Source: Escherichia coli
GTDB taxonomy: Bacteria; Pseudomonadota; Gammaproteobacteria; Enterobacterales; Enterobacteriaceae
DNA: 64,000 nt
NCBI RefSeq assembly: GCF_041248615.1
Contig: NZ_CP158426.1
Strand: one strand, 5' to 3'
Under the pieces are notes generated by a model. The model saw only the letters and a list, made by a program, of their open reading frames with translations, was not told the DNA's origin and made no database searches. Below, piece after piece: positions 12,514 through 22,810 of the stretch; within the stretch, counting starts at the first letter, position 1; each line of letters starts with the position of its first letter. Made by a program: the position numbers and the translations under genes.

Positions 12514-13305
12514 ATGATGAAAAATACAGGCTATATCTTAGCTCTTTGTCTGACAGCATCGGGGCATGTCCTGGCCCATGATGTCTGGATTACCGGCAAA
12601 CAGGCAGAGAACAACGTTATCGCAGAGATTGGTTATGGTCATAATTTCCCCTCAAAGGGCACGATTCCTGACAGAAGGGATTTCTTTGAAACTCCCCGGC
12701 TTTATAACGGGAAAGAGACAATAACGCTGAAGCCAACATCCACGGATTATGTCTATAAAATTGAGTCTGCAGGCAACGGTAATAGCTACGTTCTGTCAAC
12801 GAAAATGAAACCGGGATACTGGTCGAGAACCTCGTCAGGATGGAAGCCTGTCAGCCGGGAGGGCAGAAATGATGTGGCATACTGTGAGTTTGTGACTAAA
12901 TATGCAAAATCTTTTATTCCTGGTGAACAGCAGATGCCAGCACAACTCTATCAGTATCCAATAGGGGATGAGCTTGAAATCATTCCGTTATCCGATATCA
13001 GTCGTTTCGGTGAAGATGTGAAGCTGAAAGTTCTGTATAAAACTTCCCCGCTTGCCGGAGCCACTCTGGAGCTTGACTCTGTCAGTTATCTGAAATCATC
13101 CCGCCATACTCATGCGGCAGAGCATAAACATTCGGCTCATAAAGCAGAACTTACCTTTGTAAGTAATGAGGACGGTATCATCACTGTACCCTCCCTTCAT
13201 GTCGGGCAATGGCTAGCTAAAGTCAAAAATAAGAAAGTATTTCAGGACAAAAACCTGTGTGATGAAACTGTCGATGTGGCAACCTTAAGCTTCTCCCGAA
13301 ATTAA
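12514..13305 (+). CDS. periplasmic His-rich protein, likely partner of the TonB-dependent receptor (DUF4198-like, tentative)
   Basis: 263 aa, AGGA ribosome-binding site and ATG 19 bp after the receptor stop; signal peptide MMKNTGYILALCLTASGHVLA; His-rich stretch SSRHTHAAEHKHSAHK. Family name is from memory. Confidence 0.5.
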   Translation: MMKNTGYILALCLTASGHVLAHDVWITGKQAENNVIAEIGYGHNFPSKGTIPDRRDFFETPRLYNGKETITLKPTSTDYVYKIESAGNGNSYVLSTKMKPGYWSRTSSGWKPVSREGRNDVAYCEFVTKYAKSFIPGEQQMPAQLYQYPIGDELEIIPLSDISRFGEDVKLKVLYKTSPLAGATLELDSVSYLKSSRHTHAAEHKHSAHKAELTFVSNEDGIITVPSLHVGQWLAKVKNKKVFQDKNLCDETVDVATLSFSRN

Positions 13306-13418
13306 TAATACTATTCCTGCCCTGTAATTTACGGGCAGGGTATATCAACCGGAAATAGCCTACTGACATCCATGTATAAAGCCACATAATTATTTTGTTG
13401 ATGTATCTTACCTAATAC

Positions 13419-13863
13419 GTAAGCGTAAAGCCAATGCCGTCTGTAACTCCTGATCCTTGCAGACTAAATGTAAGCGCTCCTTCTGTGCCGTCTTGTGGTG
13501 GTTGTCCTGTCTGGCAACAATCGTGTCCATCTATTGATGGACACGAATGATGAATTCTCAGACAACAAAAGATATCACCGGCTTTCGCTCTTATTTTCCA
13601 GATGTATTGCGACTAATATTCGAAGAGCAATTATCTGTTCGGGCTATCGCACTGGAGCAGTTAGGCCTCAGTCATTCCACCGTTCATAATATCTTTCAAC
13701 GGTTTAATGCCTCTGGCATGTAAGCGTAAACCGACCGTTGTATTGACGCTTATTTATAGGGGAGAACTACGTTCCATGGCAGGAGTTCGTCAGTAAGCGT
13801 ACAGCCTGAACCGTCTGGTCAGAATCTGACGCATTAGACAAAGTGGTGTCCACAAAATAAGTA
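13419..13863. mobile_element. stack of IS66-family terminal fragments (several GTAAGCG… ends), including a truncated HTH orf1 start
   Basis: GTAAGCG-type IS66 termini recur at about 13419, 13471, 13720 and 13794. 13547-13723 encodes a 58-aa HTH fragment (…LSVRAIALEQLGLSHSTVHNIF…). 13720-13793 nearly duplicates the end seen at 14675-14750. Confidence 0.5.
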
Positions 13864-14265
13864 GTGGGAACCAAAGTGTCAGATATGCAGAAAAATGTGA
13901 CTCCCGGCAGGCGAAAAGGCTGCCCTAATTATCCTCCCGAATTTAAACAGCTGCTCGTTGCTGCCTCCTGTGAACCCGGGATATCCATCTCAAAACTTGC
14001 TCTTGAAAATGGCATTAACGCCAATCTGTTGTTCAAATGGCGACAACAATGGCGCGAGGGAAAGCTGCTATTACCTTCTTCAGAGAGCCCCCAGCTACTT
14101 CCTGTGACTCTCGATGCAGCTGCCGAACAGCCAGAATCGCTCGCAGAGGACCCGGAAACCCTCAGTATCAGCTGTGAGGTAACGTTCCGGCACGGGACGC
14201 TCCGCTTCAATGGCAATGTCAGCGAAAAGCTCCTGACTCTGCTGATACAGGAACTGAAACGATGA
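13864..14265 (+). CDS. IS66-family accessory protein Orf1 (TnpA-like)
   Basis: 133 aa; …PEFKQLLVAASCEPGISISKLALENGINANLLFKWRQQW… typical of IS66 orf1. Confidence 0.8.
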   Translation: MGTKVSDMQKNVTPGRRKGCPNYPPEFKQLLVAASCEPGISISKLALENGINANLLFKWRQQWREGKLLLPSSESPQLLPVTLDAAAEQPESLAEDPETLSISCEVTFRHGTLRFNGNVSEKLLTLLIQELKR

Positions 14266-14609
14266 TCCCGTTACCTTCCGGGACCAAAATTTGGCTGGTT
14301 GCCGGTATCACCGATATGAGAAATGGCTTCAACGGCCTGGCTGCGAAAGTACAGACGGCGCTGAAAGACGATCCCATATCCGGCCATGTTTTCATTTTCC
14401 GGGGCCGCAGCGGCAGTCAGGTTAAACTGCTGTGGTCCACCGGTGACGGGCTGTGCCTCCTGACCAAGCGGCTGGAGCGTGGGCGCTTCGCCTGGCCGTC
14501 AGCCCGTGATGGCAAAGTGTTCCTTACGCAGGCGCAGCTGGCGATGCTGCTGGAAGGTATCGACTGGCGACAGCCTAAGCGGCTGCTGACCTCCCTGACC
14601 ATGCTGTAA
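14262..14609 (+). CDS. IS66-family Orf2 (TnpB)
   Basis: 115 aa; MIPLPSGTKIWLVAGITDMRNGFNGL…, the conserved IS66 orf2 signature. The expected orf3 transposase is missing, replaced by the next IS66 element. Confidence 0.85.
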   Translation: MIPLPSGTKIWLVAGITDMRNGFNGLAAKVQTALKDDPISGHVFIFRGRSGSQVKLLWSTGDGLCLLTKRLERGRFAWPSARDGKVFLTQAQLAMLLEGIDWRQPKRLLTSLTML

Positions 14610-14704
14610 ATCTCTTTATCCTGGTTGTCACAGAATAAGCCCGGTAAAATACGGGCTTATGAACGACATCTCTTGTAAGCGTCAACGGAGCACCGTATTG
14701 ACGC

Positions 14705-16297
14705 TTATTTATTGGTGAGTACTACGTTCCATGGCAGGAGTTCGTCAACACAGTTGGAGGGCCATTCCGGCAGTACGCTCAGAATATGGCGCAGATACGC
14801 TTCCGGATCGATACCGTTCAGACGGCAGGTGCCGATCAGCCCGTACAGCAGTGCTCCACGCTCGCCGCCGTGATCGCTACCGAAGAACACGTAATTTTTC
14901 TTTCCGAGACAGACTGCACGAAGCGCTCTTTCCGCTGTGTTATTGTCCGCTTCTGCCAAACCATCATCACTGTAATAACAGAGGGCGTCCCACTGATTCA
15001 GTACATAGCTGAACGCTTCGCCCAGTCTGGATTTTTTCGACAGCGTGCCATTCTTCTCCACCATCCATTCATGCAGCGACGTCAGTAACGCTTTGCTTCG
15101 CTGCTGCCTGGCTGCAAGACGCTCTGACTCTGGTAATCCCCGTATTTCATCCTCGATGGCGTACAGTTCACTGATTCGCTTCAGGGCTTCTTCTGCCGTC
15201 GCACTTTTGCTGCTGATGTATACATCGTGGATTTTTCGCCGGGCATGGGCCCAGCACGCAACTTCTGTCAGTGCACCACCTTCACGTTCTGCACTGAACA
15301 ACCTGTCGTAACCTGTGAACGCATCCGCCTGCAGGATACCCCGGAAGGGGCGAAGGTGTTGCTCCGGGTGTTTCCCCTGCCGGTTCGGCGAGTACGCGAA
15401 CCAGACCGCTGGAGGAGATGACGAACCCACATTGCGATCATCCCGGACATACGTCCAGATACACCCTGTTTTCGCCTTTTTCTGACCCGGTGCCAGTACC
15501 TTTACCGGTGTGTCATCAGTGTGAACCTTGCGGGTATTCATTACATAACGGTACAGGGCATCATTCACCGGTGTCATTAACTGGCAGCACGCGTCAACCC
15601 AGTTGGAGAGTAAGGCCCGGCTCAGTTCGACACCCTGGCGGGCAAAGATTTCACTCTGACGATACAGTGGCAGATGTTCGCAGTATTTTCCCGTTAACAC
15701 GCGGGCAAGTAATCCGGGGCCCGCGATACCACGCTCTATCGGGCGGGACGGCGCCGGTGCTTCAACAATACAGTCACATTTTGTACAGGCTTTTTTTACC
15801 CGTTCTGTGCGGATCACTTTCAGGGCACTGCTCACCAGTTCCAGCTGTTCAGCGCTGACTTCCCCCAGATAATCCAGCTCACCGCCACACTCCGGGCAAC
15901 AGCTTTCTTCTGGCTCCAGGCGGTGTATTTCACGGGGAAGGTGTGCCGGTAACGGACGACGATGGCGCGACTGTCGCAACTGGCGGGGAACCTGAGGATC
16001 GTCTTCCCGCCCACTGTAACGATCGCTGTCCTGTTCACGTTGTTTCAGCAGAGCCTCAGCCAGTTCAACTTCACGACGCAGTTTTTCAGAACGGGTACCG
16101 AACAGCATCCGGTGCAGTTTTTCTATCTGAGCCCGCAGATGTTCTATTTCCCGTTCATCTTCTTCGATCTTTTCTTCGGCACGTGCCAGTGCAGAGCGCA
16201 GGAAGGCCTCCGTCTCTTCAACCAGACTCAGTTGCTGGTCTTTCTGACGGAGCTGGCTTTCCAGTTCTGCAATGCGAATGAGGTATTTCTGACTCAT
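14705..16297 (-). CDS. IS66-family transposase (Orf3/TnpC)
   Basis: 530 aa; N-terminal coiled coil, zinc-finger CCPECGGELDY, conserved core (…YRQSEIFARQGV…, …VACWAHARRK…). Confidence 0.9.
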   Translation of the reverse strand: MSQKYLIRIAELESQLRQKDQQLSLVEETEAFLRSALARAEEKIEEDEREIEHLRAQIEKLHRMLFGTRSEKLRREVELAEALLKQREQDSDRYSGREDDPQVPRQLRQSRHRRPLPAHLPREIHRLEPEESCCPECGGELDYLGEVSAEQLELVSSALKVIRTERVKKACTKCDCIVEAPAPSRPIERGIAGPGLLARVLTGKYCEHLPLYRQSEIFARQGVELSRALLSNWVDACCQLMTPVNDALYRYVMNTRKVHTDDTPVKVLAPGQKKAKTGCIWTYVRDDRNVGSSSPPAVWFAYSPNRQGKHPEQHLRPFRGILQADAFTGYDRLFSAEREGGALTEVACWAHARRKIHDVYISSKSATAEEALKRISELYAIEDEIRGLPESERLAARQQRSKALLTSLHEWMVEKNGTLSKKSRLGEAFSYVLNQWDALCYYSDDGLAEADNNTAERALRAVCLGKKNYVFFGSDHGGERGALLYGLIGTCRLNGIDPEAYLRHILSVLPEWPSNCVDELLPWNVVLTNK

Positions 16298-16327
16298 GGC
16301 CGTTTTTATAATGCGGCCAGGCGTTTT

Positions 16328-16678
16328 TTACAACATTGTCAGTGCGTTAAGGCGGAATGTTTTTGGCTGACGCCAGTCCAGCTTATCGAGGAGCATTGCC
16401 AGTTGCGAGCGGGTAATGGATACCTTGCCGTCACGTACCGCAGGCCAGATAAACTGGCCTTCCTCCAGGCGTTTGGTGAACAGGCACAGACCATCAGCAT
16501 CAGCCCAAAGAATTTTAACGGTGTCACCCCGTCGGCCACGGAAGATAAACAGGTGACCGGAGAAGGGATTATCATTCAGCACATGTTGTACCTGTTCTCC
16601 CAGTCCGTTGAAGGATTTACGCATATCGGTAACGCCGGCAACGAGCCAGATACGGGTACCTGATGGGAGTGAGATCAT
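16328..16678 (-). CDS. IS66-family Orf2 (TnpB)
   Basis: 115 aa; MISLPSGTRIWLVAGVTDMRKSFNGL…. Confidence 0.85.
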   Translation of the reverse strand: MISLPSGTRIWLVAGVTDMRKSFNGLGEQVQHVLNDNPFSGHLFIFRGRRGDTVKILWADADGLCLFTKRLEEGQFIWPAVRDGKVSITRSQLAMLLDKLDWRQPKTFRLNALTML

Positions 16679-17100
16679 CTTCCCCTCCCGGTCAGTTCAC
16701 GGATCAACACCGTGAGCAGCTCTGGCGATGGATTTTCCAGCGTCATGTTACCGTGACGGAATTCCACCTTGCAGGAACTGGCACTGACTCTGGTCTGAGT
16801 GGAAGTGGATAAAGACGGCGCAATGGCCGCCACAGGTTCTTTCTGCTCATCCGGCGTTATTTCTACAGGTAATAATTCAACGCCAGTGTCAGAAGAGGTC
16901 GTTACCGGAAGACGCCGCGAAACACGCCCTTCGTTCTGCCAGAGCCTGAGCCATTTGAAAATAACATTATCATTGACGCCATTTTCACGTGCAATCTGTG
17001 CAACACAAGCTCCAGGTTGTGATGCCAGTTCCACCATACGAAGTTTGAATTCATTCGAATAGTTTTTACGAGGTTCTTTTCGCCAGTCCTGTAATTCCAT
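16675..17100 (-). CDS. IS66-family Orf1 (TnpA-like)
   Basis: 141 aa; …NEFKLRMVELASQPGACVAQIARENGVNDNVIFKWLRLW…. Confidence 0.8.
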   Translation of the reverse strand: MELQDWRKEPRKNYSNEFKLRMVELASQPGACVAQIARENGVNDNVIFKWLRLWQNEGRVSRRLPVTTSSDTGVELLPVEITPDEQKEPVAAIAPSLSTSTQTRVSASSCKVEFRHGNMTLENPSPELLTVLIRELTGRGR

Positions 17101-17185
17101 ACTTAGATGTCCGTCTATATCAGATGGGCGTCTAAGTTACCAATTCTCGTCTGATGGCTACATACGGCGGTCAGTTTACGCTTAC

Positions 17186-18430
17186 CTTTATCCCGACAGA
17201 CGACGTATATTTACCAGTAAGGCCAACCCGGTTGCGCCCTTTGAACCAGAAGTCAAACGTCAGGCTGTCATGGCACTCTGTACACGACAAGTATCAGCCA
17301 GTGAAATCGCCAGGCGTATTGGTGTCAGTCGTGCGGTATTGTATAAATGGAAAGATAAAATTATCGGCAACAGTGCTTACCAGACTATGCGTAAACATAA
17401 CGAACCTTCCCTGGAGGCAGAACGCGATGCGTTGCGGGAGGAAGTCGCCCGACTGAATCAGGAAATACGCCGCCGGCAGATGGAGCTGGATATTCTGAAA
17501 AAGGCGGAGGAAATCATAAAAAAAGACCCGGGCATCAGTATCAGTCACCTGAACAACAGAGAGAAAACGAAGATCGCTGATGCCCTGAGACAAACATATC
17601 CCCTGACAGAATTACTGCATGTTCTGGGCCTTGCCCGTAGCAGTTATTTTTATCACCGGGCTGCACTGAAAGCCGGTGATAAATACGCCACGATACGTAC
17701 GATGCTGACAGATATATTTAACAGTAATTACCAGTGTTATGGCTATCGTCGCCTGCATGCGATGCTCAGGCATGAGGGGGGGCGGCTATCAGAAAAGGTT
17801 GTACGCAGACTTATGGTGGAAGAACAGCTTGTCGTCAGCCGTAACCGTCGTCGCCGCTACAGCTCATATTGCGGAGAAATCGGACCGGCTCCGGATAACC
17901 TTATCGCCAGAGATTTTAAGGCGGAGCAACCTAATCAGAAATGGCTGACAGATATCACGGAGTTCCACCTCCCTGCAGGTAAAGTCTGGCTATCATCGGT
18001 GGTGGACTGCTTCGATGGAAAAGTTGTGAGCTGGTCTCTCAGTACACGCCCCGATGCTGAACTGGTCAACACTATGCTGGATAGCGCTGTCGAAACGTTA
18101 AATGCTGGCGAACGACCGGTGATACACAGTGACAGAGGTGGGCATTATCGCTGGTCAGGCTGGCTGGAAAGAGTGAATGCAGAAGGTCTTATTCGCTCAA
18201 TGTCCCGCAAAGGATGTTCACCTGATAATGCGGCATGCGAAGGCTTTTTCGGCAGACTGAAAACGGAAATGTATCATGGGCGTAAATGGTCGGGCATCAC
18301 GCCAGAAAAGTTCATGCAGCAAGTGGATACTTACATCAGATGGTATAACGAGCGGCGTATAAAATTATCGCCGGGTGCAGTCAGCCCCAAAATGTACCGC
18401 CAACAATGCGGGCTGGAATGATAAAGCAGT
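17186..18430 (+). mobile_element. IS3-family element, 5'-truncated by the IS66 insertion (right end approximate)
   Basis: Only about 30 codons of an orfA-like frame remain upstream of the transposase ORF, starting directly at the IS66 terminus. Confidence 0.6.
17270..18421 (+). CDS. IS3-family transposase (OrfB-type DDE integrase with fused HTH region)
   Basis: 383 aa; HTH near the N-terminus (VSASEIARRIGVSRAVLYKWK), DDE-domain motifs (…WLTDITEF…, …HSDRGGHYR…, …SPDNAACEGFF…). Confidence 0.75.
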   Translation: MALCTRQVSASEIARRIGVSRAVLYKWKDKIIGNSAYQTMRKHNEPSLEAERDALREEVARLNQEIRRRQMELDILKKAEEIIKKDPGISISHLNNREKTKIADALRQTYPLTELLHVLGLARSSYFYHRAALKAGDKYATIRTMLTDIFNSNYQCYGYRRLHAMLRHEGGRLSEKVVRRLMVEEQLVVSRNRRRRYSSYCGEIGPAPDNLIARDFKAEQPNQKWLTDITEFHLPAGKVWLSSVVDCFDGKVVSWSLSTRPDAELVNTMLDSAVETLNAGERPVIHSDRGGHYRWSGWLERVNAEGLIRSMSRKGCSPDNAACEGFFGRLKTEMYHGRKWSGITPEKFMQQVDTYIRWYNERRIKLSPGAVSPKMYRQQCGLE

Positions 18431-19312
18431 CCAGGAAATCGTCCGCATCCCCAGAACGGTCAAACATCGTGGCGTTGACAACGGGTTCCTGAGTCCGGTG
18501 AAGCGCCGGTTACTGGAAAATGTTGTGTACGTCATAACAGAAACGGAGAGAAAAACGGCGATGCAAATCAGGCGGAGAAGGGTGTATCAGCGGTTACTGA
18601 AGGTTGACCCGCTGAAGTGCATCCTGTGCGGAGGTCAGATGCGGTTTACGGGGCTGAAGCGGGGCTACCGTCTGGCAGAGCTGGTCATGATGCATGAGCC
18701 ACTGGCACGACAGCGGGTATACAGCTGAGAGCCGCAGAGGGGAAGTTGCGTCCATTTTTTGAGGAATGGAGCAAAAAATCATCACAGATATAAAAAATCA
18801 ATCAATGAAAGCCATTTAATTGCCGGTGCATTGTGGATGCAGTCCTCATGGTACGTAACCAGAGTTGAATAAACATCCATTTTTTTGTGTTTTTTTAACC
18901 TCCCCGGGTTTTTAATTCCTGTCGATTAAAAGTGTTAGATTATTTGGTTAAGAGTTCTCTCGTCCTATTTATTCAGGCGTTATCACGGATATGCAGATCG
19001 CTAAGTCAGTTGTAAGAAAACCAGACAGTGCACATCATTATACCTAGGTCTTCTCTGGAAAAATACTTAGGAATAATTTATGTAAAACAGGTTGTCGTCT
19101 TCATGATTTAAACGCAGTACATATATATACTCTATAATAAATACAGGGAGTATCACGAGACGTCTGGATAAGAGGAATAACCAGAATAAATTGGTAAGGA
19201 ATAAAGACACTTATTTCTATTGAGAAAAAACATTCATCCTGATGTGATTAGTATCAATGAAATAATGTGCTTGTATGGTTGATAAAAAATGCATCACTAA
19301 AGAAAAAACAGT

Positions 19313-22300
19313 ATGAATAAGAATATACGAATTTTACAATTTCTGGTCAGTATACTTTATTCTGTGCAGTCTCATTTTTCTGGTGCGCAAACAATACAAC
19401 TGAATGGTAATGGTATACCTGAAAGTATAACCAGGAGTATTACAGGTGTTGATGGAAACGCGGCGCTTAATATCAGCGTGCCGTATAAAACAAGTTATAC
19501 TCAAAATATACTATCTGTTGAAAGCAGTATTAACATCAAAGGAGGAACAAGCAATACATCAATCGGTGGTGCAGGTGTCTACGGTGAAAACTTTACGCTA
19601 AATAATAATGGTAGTGTTTGGGGAGGAGATGGATATAATGGTGGAATTGCTGTTAGTGGCAACAAAATATCTATAAACAATTACAGAAATGTATATGGGG
19701 GTAATGGTCTTGGTGGCTCAGGAAGTAGCGGAGGTGCAGGGTTAAGCGGGGATGATATTATAGTTGATAATTACAGAAGTATATACGGAGGTGATGATGT
19801 AGGTGGGACAGGTGGTTCCGGTGTAACCGGTAGCAATATTACAGTGCATAATTCCGGAGGAATATTGGGCGGTAATGGCGTAAACGGTGGTGATGGTATT
19901 AATGGTAGTAATCTTTTCATTACTAACGACAACATGATATCTGGAGGATATGGAATAAAACAAGGGGGAGATGCTATTTCTGGAAATCAAATCACTTTGA
20001 ATAATAACGGTATTGTTCAGGGGGGATATGGCCCCGACGGTGGTTGCTCTGTTTATGGAGAAGATATCCATATTAATAATCATGGTAATCTTTCAGGATT
20101 ATATAATAGCCAAAAAGATGCTTATAATACATCAATAATTTTTTCTGGCGGGTATAATTCATTAGATATTTATTCAGATTCTGTGATTAATGGTGATATT
20201 AAACTAGCTAGTATACCTGTTAATGGTACAAATGAATTAATTATTAAAAACATCAATAACGCAACAGCAATTAATGGTGGGCTAATGATTGGGAATGGCT
20301 CATCTGTTTATCTGTCAGGCAAGAACTCCATTTTTAACGGAAATATAAGTATTGATGAAGACGCATCTATGAACCTGTCTGTAGGAAATGCTAATGTTCA
20401 CGCAAATACTATTACATTAAAAAGTGATTCATGGCTTAATATAGACACATCAATTAAGAACTGGACTCAGGACTATTACACATTATTGTCGTCAGACACA
20501 GGTATCTCGATCGCTGATAATAGTCACATTGTACAATACAATGTATTACTGACAGAAGGTGCTGAAAGTTATGTTTATACGTCTTTAAATGACGACGATA
20601 ACAAACTGATATCCATGCTGAGATGGAATAATACAAAAGGGATGGGATATGGAACCTTTAATATAGAAAAAGATGCCACTCTGAACATAGGCGTTTCTCT
20701 TTCCGATAATCTTTCACCTTTATTATATGATGGCTGGGACGGCAAAAGTCTGACAAAATCAGGTAATGGTACTCTTATACTTTCTGCAACAAACAATTAT
20801 ACAGGAAATACAGAGGTTAAATCTGGCGTATTAATTCTTGCTGCACCTGATGCTCTTGGTCGGACTGAGTATTTATATTTATCCCGTGGCGCAGAACTGG
20901 ATATGAATGGGTATCCTCAGACAATAAGCAAACTACTGACGGCTGCAGGCTCTGTGCTGAACATTCATGGCGGAAGTCTGATACTGAATAATGGAGGAGA
21001 ATCTGCAGGTACTATTGCAGGGGATGGTTCTCTGAACATAAATGGGGGAATGCTTGATATAACGGGTAATAATCGTAATTTTTCCGGTGTTTTTACCGTG
21101 AATAAGGGGGCTCATTTGGCTGTATCCACGGCTGATAATCTGGGGACAGCCTTTGTTGATAACTATGGCACATTAACTCTGAACAGTACATCAGCATGGC
21201 AGCTTACCAACAATATCAGTGGTTATGGTAATGTTCGCAAGACGGGAGCAGGTGCACTGAACATTAGCGATAACGCAAAATGGACCGGGATGACAGATAT
21301 TATTCAGGGGACAGTGATACTGGGGAACGCAGATTCACCGGTGATGCTCGGCAGTAACCAGGTCATTGTTGAAGAGCAGGGCAAACTCTCCGGGTTTGGG
21401 GGCGTTGCAGGAAATCTGAGCAATAGTGGTATAGTCGATCTCACTACATATATGCCGGGTAATATACTGACTGTCGGAGGGAATTACACTGGCAGAAATG
21501 GACTTATTCTCCTCCAGACAGAAACAGGTGGTGACAATTCGAAAACAGATCGTCTGGTGATTAAAGGTAATGCCAGTGGCCGTACCCGTGTCGCTGTTAC
21601 TCAGGCCGGTGGTACTGGTGCAGAGACACTTAATGGGATTGAAGTGATTCACGTCAGTGGCAATGCTGATAATGCTGAATTCATTCAGACGGAACGTATT
21701 ACAGCCGGAGCTTATGATTACATACTGAAACGTGGTCAGGGGATTAACAGCACTAACTGGTATCTGATTAGCAGAAAAGACATTCCTGTACCACAACCTG
21801 AAGCTGTACCGGAAAGCCATGATAATAATTTGCGTCCTGAGGCAGGTAGCTATGTTGCCAGTATTGCTGCTGCAAATAATCTGTTTGTAACGAATCTGTA
21901 TGAACGACAGGGACAGGAGTTGTATATCAGCCACATGACAGGAGAAGAAAATGAAGCAGGTATCTGGATGTATAATAAAGGAAAACATAATCGCTGGCGT
22001 GACAACAGTAGTCAGCTGAGAACCCGGGGGAATAGCTACGTTGTGTTAATAGGGGGAGATATAGCTCAGTGGAGCCTGAATGGTACCGATCGCTGGCATA
22101 CAGGTATGATGGCTGGCTATGGTCATAATAATAACAGTACGAATGCCCTGAGCACCGGATACCATTCGGAAGGAAGAATGAATGGATACACAGCGGGTCT
22201 TTATGCAACATGGTATGCCAATGATGAAACACACAATGGTTCTTATCTTGATAGCTGGCTGCAATACAGCTGGTTTGATAATCATATAAATGGAGAACGG

Positions 22301-22810
22301 CTGCCTGCTGAGTCATGGAAGTCAAAAGGGTTTACGGTATCTCTGGAAGCAGGATATTCATGGAAGGCTGGAGAGTTTACCGACAATTACAAGGGAAGTC
22401 ATGAATGGTATGTTCAGCCGCAGCTTCAGGTTGTCCGGATGAATGTAAAATCAGACAAATATCATGAAAGTAACGGAACCAGTATTGAAAATACCGGTAA
22501 CGGAAATATTCTCACCCGCCTGGGAGCAAGAACATGGCTTACCAGCAAAAACGGTAAAAATACGCGGTATGCGGTTCCGTTCAGACCATTTGTGGAGGCA
22601 CACTGGTTGCACAATAGTCGTGTTTTCGGCACCAGTATGAATGGTGTAAGTATATACCAGGATGGTGCGCGTGATATCGGAGAAATAAATGGTGGTGTTG
22701 TGGGAATGATAACACCAGAAGTAGCATTCCGGGCTGATGCAGGCATTCAACTTGGAGAACATGGATACCATAATACATCTGCCATGTTGAGTGTGGAATA
22801 TCGTTTCTGA
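19313..22810 (+). CDS. autotransporter adhesin (type Va secretion) with Gly-rich repetitive passenger domain
   Basis: 1165 aa, ATG start after an AT-rich leader; signal peptide MNKNIRILQFLVSILYSVQSHFSGA; passenger full of G-G-x-G / N-N-x-G repeats; C-terminal ~280 aa with alternating beta-strand pattern ending …SVEYRF, as in AIDA-I/Ag43-type beta-domains. Confidence 0.8.
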   Translation: MNKNIRILQFLVSILYSVQSHFSGAQTIQLNGNGIPESITRSITGVDGNAALNISVPYKTSYTQNILSVESSINIKGGTSNTSIGGAGVYGENFTLNNNGSVWGGDGYNGGIAVSGNKISINNYRNVYGGNGLGGSGSSGGAGLSGDDIIVDNYRSIYGGDDVGGTGGSGVTGSNITVHNSGGILGGNGVNGGDGINGSNLFITNDNMISGGYGIKQGGDAISGNQITLNNNGIVQGGYGPDGGCSVYGEDIHINNHGNLSGLYNSQKDAYNTSIIFSGGYNSLDIYSDSVINGDIKLASIPVNGTNELIIKNINNATAINGGLMIGNGSSVYLSGKNSIFNGNISIDEDASMNLSVGNANVHANTITLKSDSWLNIDTSIKNWTQDYYTLLSSDTGISIADNSHIVQYNVLLTEGAESYVYTSLNDDDNKLISMLRWNNTKGMGYGTFNIEKDATLNIGVSLSDNLSPLLYDGWDGKSLTKSGNGTLILSATNNYTGNTEVKSGVLILAAPDALGRTEYLYLSRGAELDMNGYPQTISKLLTAAGSVLNIHGGSLILNNGGESAGTIAGDGSLNINGGMLDITGNNRNFSGVFTVNKGAHLAVSTADNLGTAFVDNYGTLTLNSTSAWQLTNNISGYGNVRKTGAGALNISDNAKWTGMTDIIQGTVILGNADSPVMLGSNQVIVEEQGKLSGFGGVAGNLSNSGIVDLTTYMPGNILTVGGNYTGRNGLILLQTETGGDNSKTDRLVIKGNASGRTRVAVTQAGGTGAETLNGIEVIHVSGNADNAEFIQTERITAGAYDYILKRGQGINSTNWYLISRKDIPVPQPEAVPESHDNNLRPEAGSYVASIAAANNLFVTNLYERQGQELYISHMTGEENEAGIWMYNKGKHNRWRDNSSQLRTRGNSYVVLIGGDIAQWSLNGTDRWHTGMMAGYGHNNNSTNALSTGYHSEGRMNGYTAGLYATWYANDETHNGSYLDSWLQYSWFDNHINGERLPAESWKSKGFTVSLEAGYSWKAGEFTDNYKGSHEWYVQPQLQVVRMNVKSDKYHESNGTSIENTGNGNILTRLGARTWLTSKNGKNTRYAVPFRPFVEAHWLHNSRVFGTSMNGVSIYQDGARDIGEINGGVVGMITPEVAFRADAGIQLGEHGYHNTSAMLSVEYRF

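Follow-up and report, generated by a model that had tools for sequence, protein, structure and literature searches.

The block at positions 13419-17185 of the analysed window, a 64,000-nucleotide stretch of Escherichia coli contig NZ_CP158426.1, is best explained, with high confidence, as a 3,767-bp composite IS66-family transposable unit consisting of one complete element (E) and the dead fragments A-D. Comparison of occupied with empty insertion sites shows that the block has transposed as a single unit at least twice, making an 8-bp duplication each time. No description of this composite was found in the literature.

Termini and layout of the stack

IS66-family elements have terminal repeats of 20-30 bp that start with GTAAGCG, and generate 8-bp direct repeats on insertion (PMC11946415). 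The genes of classic members specify TnpA, TnpB, and a DDE transposase (PMC12888890). Within the block, whose placement by the sequence-only reading is borne out to the base, GTAAGCG termini lie at 13419, 13470, 13720, 13793, and 14675 on the plus strand and at 17185 on the minus strand. The 7-mer alone is not enriched across the window, where it has 10 matches against 6.5 expected, a count reached by 14 of 100 shuffles. The evidence for the termini is their clustering and extended homology rather than their frequency: six of the 10 matches fall inside 3.8 kb, and each of these runs on into a 22-27-nt terminal repeat of IS66 type. All six align with the ends of reference IS66-family elements, as the sequence-only reading of this DNA had anticipated, and in the alignment of 12 ends (reference elements included) G1-G7 and G21/T22 are invariant or nearly so. 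Each of the fragments A-D ends exactly at the start of the next element's intact terminus and keeps its own outward, left-facing GTAAGCG terminus; the complete, inverted E then closes the stack (Table 1).

Table 1. Features of the stack and its flanks, in window coordinates.
Feature	Position	Strand	Description
Left flank	13411-13418	.	CCTAATAC; homology to the uninterrupted UTI89 gene cluster stops here
Fragment A	13419-13469	+	Orphan left end of 51 bp, a terminal inverted repeat from an ISEc43-like member of the IS66 family
Fragment B	13470-13719	+	Leftmost 250 bp of an element of the IS66 family whose TnpA is long
Fragment C	13720-13792	-	Terminal 73 bp, tnpC side, of a relative of E
Fragment D	13793-14674	+	Leftmost 882 bp of an element resembling ISEc8; Pfam HTH_Tnp_1 and TnpB_IS66 matches
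Element E	14675-17185	-	Complete, inverted, 2,511 bp; probable ISEc23 isoform by comparison with a PGAP-labelled copy
IS3-family element	17186-18421	+	5'-truncated, abuts the unit; Pfam rve and HTH_21, NCBIfam transpos_IS3; first 8 bp CTTTATCC
IS91-family transposase	18483-18728	+	C-terminal remnant, from the RefSeq annotation of the identical NZ_LT599825.1 region; outside the unit

The dead fragments

Fragment A is identical to the left ends found upstream of tnpA-tnpB-tnpC in two other loci (L004 and L005), and the tnpC of L005 is labelled 'ISEc43 family'. We considered A and B as one contiguous fragment, as BLAST matches run 15 nt past A, and rejected this, the match being a gapped extension through an out-of-register shared 9-mer, GCTCCTTCT. 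On reading of the parent sequences, A ends at 13469. The open reading frame of fragment B (13547-13723) holds the first 58 codons of tnpA, with the stop codon supplied by fragment C; its product has an N-terminal match to the IS66 TnpA model NF038385 of NCBIfam (E = 4e-13). In NZ_CP196121.1 (L006), a complete element with tnpA, tnpB, and tnpC has a left end 90% identical to fragment B. Fragment C is 88% identical to 14675-14747, and 24 nt of it are 88% complementary to 17162-17185. Both the earlier count of at least three extra end fragments upstream and the assignment of the first 58 codons of an HTH orf1 to one of them hold, the fragments being A, B, and C and the truncated gene that of B.

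Fragment D retains its terminal repeat, an intact tnpA (13885-14265, in an ORF of 13864-14265), and an intact tnpB (14262-14609), together with the first 16 nt of tnpC (14659-14674). This agrees with the description of a plus-strand copy with orf1 and orf2 that lacks orf3 and is cut at 14674. Its left end, tnpA, and tnpB are ISEc8-like, at 98.8-99.1% identity to the ISEc8-type copies in pO145-13516 and pEA8_1 (PGAP labels their tnpC 'ISEc8 family'; these labelled copies, rather than an ISfinder entry, served as reference), from which D differs in comprising only the first 882 bp, with tnpC cut after 16 nt. An assignment of D as ISEc23-like, drawn from annotation strings, was discarded after direct alignment to pO145 placed D with ISEc8 and E with ISEc23. 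The two copies of the sequence-only reading are different species of the IS66 family, ISEc8-like and ISEc23-like, whose tnpA-tnpB regions are only ~70% identical. At their joint, nucleotide 882 of the ISEc8-like element is followed directly by the intact end of the ISEc23-like one. An IS66 pile is indeed present, as the sequence-only reading proposed, but simple insertion of the complete element into the other is not evident from the sequence, the distal ISEc8-like part and a duplication both being absent.

The complete element

The genes of element E are all intact (tnpC 14705-16297, tnpB 16328-16678, and tnpA 16675-17100) and lie between two GTAAGCG ends, in keeping with its earlier recognition as a complete inverted IS66-family element. 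Its products match Pfam HTH_Tnp_1, TnpB_IS66, DDE_Tnp_IS66, zf-IS66, LZ_Tnp_IS66, and IS66_C, with all four TnpC domains present, and the NCBIfam models for IS66 TnpA, TnpB, and transpos_IS66 all score above their cut-offs. At 17185, the tnpA-side end of E doubles as the right boundary of the mobile unit.

PGAP assigns E no IS name. Its organisation (tnpA-tnpB-tnpC), its terminal repeats, and the 8-bp duplications at its free-standing copies are those of ISEc23. Compared with the copy in pO145 that PGAP labels 'ISEc23 family' (not with an ISfinder reference), E is 97.5% identical in DNA and encodes the same TnpA protein (WP_000422741.1). The TnpC proteins are 97% identical with a 7-aa deletion, corresponding to a 21-bp (7-codon) loss from the N-terminal coiled-coil part of tnpC that leaves E at 2,511 bp against 2,532 bp. 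By ISfinder convention, isoforms share at least 95% nucleotide identity with the reference over the full length. Free-standing E-like copies, 98.7-100% identical to E, occupy three unrelated sites flanked by the 8-bp duplications ACAAGATC, CAAACATC, and GAATATGC, and one such copy is 100% identical to E of the window. The terminal repeats, the three-gene set, and the 8-bp duplications at other sites place E in the IS66 family, and E is a working, autonomous element that encodes TnpA, TnpB, and the DDE transposase TnpC.

Transposition of the whole stack

The complete 3,767 bp recur at 99.9% identity on two F-type plasmids, p14EC020b and pMS1679-1, between perfect 8-bp direct repeats (CTTAATTA on p14EC020b and TGTTTATC on pMS1679-1). 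On both plasmids the duplications begin exactly at fragment A, which forms the unit's outer left boundary. Removal of the unit and one repeat copy from pMS1679-1 yields an intact 73-codon traR ORF. The same operation on p14EC020b yields a 354-bp sequence with a single-piece, 100% match to uninterrupted IncF plasmids; at least 4,997 records cover at least 80% of this empty site. In strain 14EC020, the plasmid copy and a chromosomal copy with the window's flanks show no differences in 3,767 positions, and they share three differences from the window. The block thus behaves as a transposable unit: it is found at independent sites, its ends are exact, duplications flank it, and the empty sites are intact.

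Within PLSDB the full unit occurs in only two plasmids, and these two copies are the only ones with target duplications; with 2 events among ~119 copies, transposition of the unit is rare. A point against the unit reading, besides this rarity, is that duplications were not seen around any shorter unit (B-E, C-E, or D-E), although the inner ends look equally usable.

These observations bear on two other accounts of the locus. The stack could be an inert junkyard of static IS66 debris in which E alone is still mobile, which is essentially what the sequence-only reading held. Consistent with this, fragments A-D are immobile on their own, E alone (2,511 bp) is a far commoner mobile form, present on many plasmids, and no target duplication surrounds E or the pile within the window. 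The last point stands for the window, where CATCTCTT and CTTTATCC border E and CCTAATAC and CTTTATCC border the whole stack, but does not extend to the pile elsewhere, given the 8-bp duplications on two plasmids. Those full-length copies with their precise empty sites, and the identity of the chromosomal and plasmid copies in 14EC020, make the junkyard account very unlikely; it is refuted as a complete account and remains accurate for the chromosomal locus itself. Alternatively, the stack need not have transposed as a unit: recombination, homologous or illegitimate, or the transfer of a larger piece of the island could have brought it onto the plasmids. F plasmids are rich in IS66-family sequences that could supply homology, and some match is seen in 4,791 plasmid records. 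However, on both plasmids the new DNA begins and stops exactly at the outer pair of GTAAGCG termini, neither plasmid received any island flank, and each site has an 8-bp target duplication that is single-copy in the empty plasmids, a signature foreign to recombination. We consider this route extremely improbable, and favor unit transposition.

The chromosomal locus

The window represents an E. coli selC-island locus that is common to ~117 complete genomes. The stack is present in 117 complete E. coli genomes (119 records) and also in five metagenome contigs; given this recurrence, it is not an assembly artefact. In aggregate counts, 122 E. coli genomes have the junction between the left flank and the first bases of the stack, against 117 for the stack itself. 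Scanning metagenomes with the A/B junction recovered five contigs, all with the same left flank and all (5/5) in selC-island context. The chromosomal copies evidently share this context, and the stack was probably assembled at the selC-island locus.

DNA is missing on both sides of the stack. Past the left-flank point, UTI89 reads cctaatac/attggtagc... and continues into a CobW-family gene, and this continuation is absent from the window. On the right, IS3 copies elsewhere (L008 and L009) read ...ttaatgaa/ctttatcc... across the cut, and complete copies extend ~300 bp or more upstream, confirming that the neighbouring IS3-family element is truncated at 17186. An ancestral simple insertion into this IS3 element was rejected: the left junction it predicts, built synthetically from the left part of IS3 and the start of the pile, occurs in 0/5,426 E. 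coli genomes.

Proposed origin and mechanism

Every junction lies exactly at a terminus, which points to joints made by transposase, and the stack was probably built at the selC-island locus in this way. Either nested insertions whose right-hand remainders were later lost, or a series of end-mediated adjacent deletions, could have produced the joints. Such events would explain why there is no target duplication, why the DNA adjacent in UTI89 is missing on the left, and why IS3 is truncated on the right. No intermediate that would give the order of these events was found.

For movement of the whole unit, we propose that the transposase of E would pair its tnpA-side end at 17185 with the orphan end A at 13419, rather than with its own other end at 14675. 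The 27-nt repeat between fragment A and 17159-17185 is 78% complementary; A matches the 17185 end at 21/27 positions, equal to the 21/27 positions at which E's own two ends match. Moreover, the ISEc43-family transposase, the natural partner of an A-type end, is 89% identical to E TnpC. A point against this pairing is that both outer ends of the unit are 'left-type', namely the left end of A and the left end of E, an arrangement that IS66 elements may not permit. Transposition of the unit likely depends on E TnpC acting at 13419 and 17185. A different resident IS66-family transposase, for example of ISEc43 type, could instead mobilise the unit in trans. The A end is native to ISEc43-like elements, and E. 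coli genomes often harbour several members of the IS66 family; a query spanning the region, its flanks, and the remnants of IS3 and IS91 has at least a partial match in 5,063 of 5,426 genomes. The unit nevertheless has its own complete transposition gene set, identical to that of free-standing active copies, and its right end is E's own; we regard mobilisation by another element as unlikely and E TnpC as the probable agent.

The stack also raises the speculative and rather unlikely possibility of 'end homing', whereby IS66 elements would preferentially insert in, or delete into, terminal regions of resident IS66 relatives. Anecdotal support comes from five junction positions, which lie 23, 51, 73, 250, and 882 nt from a terminus in elements of ~2.5 kb, and from three independent ISEc23/ISEc8 joints, those of the window, pO145, and pEA8_1. 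In pO145 the insertion falls within the ISEc8 terminal repeat, with the duplication GAACCGTC. No enrichment was shown: at least 80% of the 3,767-bp pile, with adjacent ISEc8-like and ISEc23-like DNA, is present in only 19 of the 4,791 matching plasmid records. If end homing were true, stacks of outward spare ends would let an active element enlarge itself and carry neighbouring DNA.

Significance and comparison with known systems

Annotation of this region shows separate transposase genes and pseudogenes, whereas the actual 3.77-kb block is a single mobile unit, one that can disrupt plasmid genes (traR on pMS1679-1) and move between the chromosome and conjugative plasmids. Orphan IS ends left by old rearrangements can serve a related active element again, providing one route to IS growth and the acquisition of passenger DNA. 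The stack is ordinary IS biology with a neat twist and involves no new protein or mechanism; it is otherwise routine mobile-element biology in a junk region of a pathogenicity island.

The unit as a whole can be compared with passenger-carrying and compound elements. As in the tIS66 elements (e.g., ISPa75; PMC12888890), one IS66 module moves together with extra DNA lying between its functional ends. However, the passenger here is IS66 debris, including an intact ISEc8-type tnpA and tnpB, with no adaptive gene, and one outer end of the 13419-17185 unit is borrowed from another family member. Classical compound transposons such as Tn10 and Tn5, in which two complete IS bracket the cargo, likewise make joint use of ends from different IS-derived pieces. 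In contrast to these, the 13419-17185 unit has E as its only complete IS, with a 51-bp orphan end as its left boundary, and it is closer to surrogate-end or 'IS plus solo repeat' mobilisation than to a compound transposon.

Composition of the IS66-family stack

The interval 13419-17185 is a stack of IS66-family pieces, four left-hand fragments (A-D) followed by a complete inverted element (E). IS66-family terminal repeats characteristically begin with the heptamer GTAAGCG (PMC11946415). Here the heptamer lies on the plus strand at 13419, 13470, 13720, 13793 and 14675, and on the minus strand at 17185. It is not enriched across the window as a whole (10 matches versus 6.5 expected), and six of the 10 fall inside these 3.8 kb. 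Each of the six is the start of a longer repeat of 22-27 nt, and these repeats can be aligned to one another and to the termini of reference elements. The layout given in a sequence-only reading of the region is borne out exactly; its interpretation stands in part only.

All of the pieces have an intact left terminus. The right-hand cuts of A-D fall exactly at the terminus of the next piece, so that all four junctions look transposase-made. An orf1 start of 58 codons noted earlier indeed matches the N-terminus of long IS66 TnpA proteins, and the plus-strand copy described as lacking the transposase orf3 (D) retains just 16 nt of tnpC. The same reading placed a complete element inside the 3' part of a second copy: E does begin where D is cut, but the two are different IS66-family species.

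Features of the stack and its surroundings in the window
Feature	Coordinates	Length	Match or basis
A	13419-13469	51 bp	identical to left end of ISEc43-like elements
B	13470-13719	250 bp	90% identity to left end of complete IS66-family element with 225-aa TnpA
58-codon ORF	13547-13723		N-terminus of long-form IS66 TnpA (Pfam/NCBIfam)
C	13720-13792	73 bp	88% identity to tnpC-side end of E
D	13793-14674	882 bp	98.8-99.1% identity to left part of ISEc8-type elements; tnpC reduced to 16 nt
TnpA gene of D	13864-14265		Pfam/NCBIfam; RefSeq start 13885
IS66 TnpB gene of D	14262-14609		Pfam/NCBIfam
E	14675-17185	2,511 bp	97.5% identity to PGAP-labelled ISEc23 of pO145-13516
tnpC of E	14705-16297		all four IS66 transposase domains (Pfam/NCBIfam)
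tnpB of E	16328-16678		Pfam/NCBIfam
tnpA of E	16675-17100		Pfam/NCBIfam
IS3-family elements	5081-6309; 9018-10231		mapped from compared locus L001; one labelled ISEc31
TonB-dependent receptor	10525-12495		island gene
DUF4198 protein	12514-13305		island gene
Autotransporter	19313-22810	1,165 aa	island gene
Tyrosine integrase	24003-25187		mapped from L001
tRNA-Sec (selC)	25487-25581		mapped from L001; adjoins integrase

BLAST matches of A-type sequences that reach into B were rejected, being caused by a shared 9-mer 2 nt out of register: the parent of A (L004 3553-3565) reads ...AAAT TAGA GCTCCTTCT..., and B (13470-13484) opens GTAAGC GCTCCTTCT.... A 73-bp sequence 89% identical to C is found at a single site in the chromosome of most E. 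coli, K-12 among them, within a short remnant annotated as a 'transposase domain-containing protein'; it appears to be an ancient relic of an IS66-family tnpC end, conserved species-wide.

E belongs to the IS66 family by every testable criterion. Stand-alone copies, 98.7-100% identical, lie on unrelated plasmids between 8-bp duplications (ACAAGATC, CAAACATC, GAATATGC), which marks E as a live element. So far as PGAP labels permit, it can be classed as an ISEc23 isoform. The pO145 copy encodes the very same TnpA protein; the two TnpC proteins are 97% identical, that of E having a 7-residue deletion.

Transposition of the whole stack

Our main result beyond the first reading is that the entire stack is a functioning transposable unit. 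All 3,767 bp (13419 to 17185) are present at 99.9% identity on two plasmids, p14EC020b and pMS1679-1, and on each the copy stands between perfect 8-bp direct repeats (CTTAATTA or TGTTTATC). When the unit is taken out of pMS1679-1 together with one copy of the repeat, an uninterrupted 73-codon traR reading frame results; the same removal from p14EC020b leaves 354 bp that thousands of IncF plasmids carry without interruption, at identities of up to 100%. The earlier statement that there are no target duplications thus holds within the window, but not for the whole unit on these plasmids.

Strain 14EC020 also carries a chromosomal copy, flanked as in the window and identical to its own plasmid copy at 3,767/3,767 positions. 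Both copies differ from the window at three shared sites, and the pMS1679-1 copy has the same three differences and one more. Among the E. coli genomes searched, 117 have the end stack, in 119 records altogether, consistent with two strains having both a chromosomal and a plasmid copy.

Origin of the stack in the selC island

The stack lies within a selC (tRNA-Sec) genomic island of E. coli. The integrase gene stands beside selC and is followed by yicJ, yicI and yicH, placing the window at the selC-proximal end. The island is heavily IS-ridden, with several pseudogenes and two further IS3-family elements upstream of the TonB-receptor gene.

The left flank is homologous to the TonB-receptor/DUF4198 cluster of UTI89 up to ...CCTAATAC, beyond which UTI89 runs on into a CobW-family gene; this continuation was sought in the window and is absent. 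At its right end the unit borders directly on an IS3-family element (...GAA|CTTTATCC), of which copies elsewhere read across this joint, confirming the truncation reported at 17186. The junction predicted by simple insertion of the unit into the IS3 element had no match among 5,426 E. coli genomes. The left flank of the stack is shared by all five metagenome contigs that contain it, and the E. coli genomes in which this flank is joined to the stack (122) about equal those with the stack (117). From this flank and junction evidence, the simplest reading is that the stack was assembled at this locus. The left joint would date from the insertion of A, and the right joint may be younger, formed by recombination or an end-mediated deletion in which E took part.

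The module to the right of the stack, made up of the IS3 element, an IS91 remnant and the autotransporter, also occurs on the chicken E. coli plasmid pZ1323CEC0011-4 (L009 4737-10625). Its IS3/IS91 remnant part is 99.9% identical to the window over 1,615 bp, and its IS3 gene reaches ~260 bp farther upstream than the cut point in the window. Directly after the ISEc8-like tnpB stop, the 12-mer ATCTCTTTATCC (14610-14621) equals the left flank of E, ATCTCTT (14668-14674), plus its right flank, CTTTATCC (17186-17193), with a 3-nt overlap. This unexplained match is probably fortuitous or else due to a weak preference for such targets, the unit duplications TGTTTATC and CTTAATTA being likewise AT-rich.

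Mechanism and comparison with known systems

The unit inserts through its termini at 13419 and 17185 with the 8-bp duplication of the family. Transposition would most likely be carried out by the TnpA, TnpB and TnpC of E, with the orphan end A standing in for the tnpC-side end of E. Use of end A by these enzymes is suggested by its match to the 17185 end at 21/27 positions, the same score as the two ends of E together, by the 89% identity between the transposase of E and that normally paired with A-type ends, and by a gene set identical to that of recently moved free-standing copies. Mobilisation in trans by some other IS66-family transposase of the host cell is less probable than action by the enzymes of E itself. 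None of the copies found uses an inner end (B, C or D) as a unit end, which is unexplained.

Joints between IS66-family elements recur near the termini of relatives. Those of the stack are at distances of 51, 250, 73 and 882 nt from such a terminus. On pO145-13516 (L013 1478-4040), ISEc23 has inserted into the left terminal repeat of ISEc8, 23 nt from its start, with an 8-bp duplication, GAACCGTC; here, independently, one member of the family has again entered the end of a relative. Escherichia albertii pEA8_1 (L015 1501-5489) has the left part of an ISEc8-like copy and, next to it, a complete ISEc23 in inverted orientation, as in D and E, with the joint at ISEc8 nt 1,457 versus 882 in the window and no flanking duplication at this locus (CTTTCAGT versus ATATTTTT). 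Since no enrichment of joints near the ends of relatives could be shown, it is doubtful that IS66-family elements are drawn to such ends.

As a mobile-element mosaic the stack is genuine but unremarkable, and its one noteworthy property is that it moves whole; no description of this 3,767-bp composite was found in the literature. It differs from a classical compound transposon in having one complete IS only. It resembles the 'tIS66', an IS66 element carrying passenger DNA (PMC12888890), but its passenger is the debris of relatives and its outer end a borrowed one.
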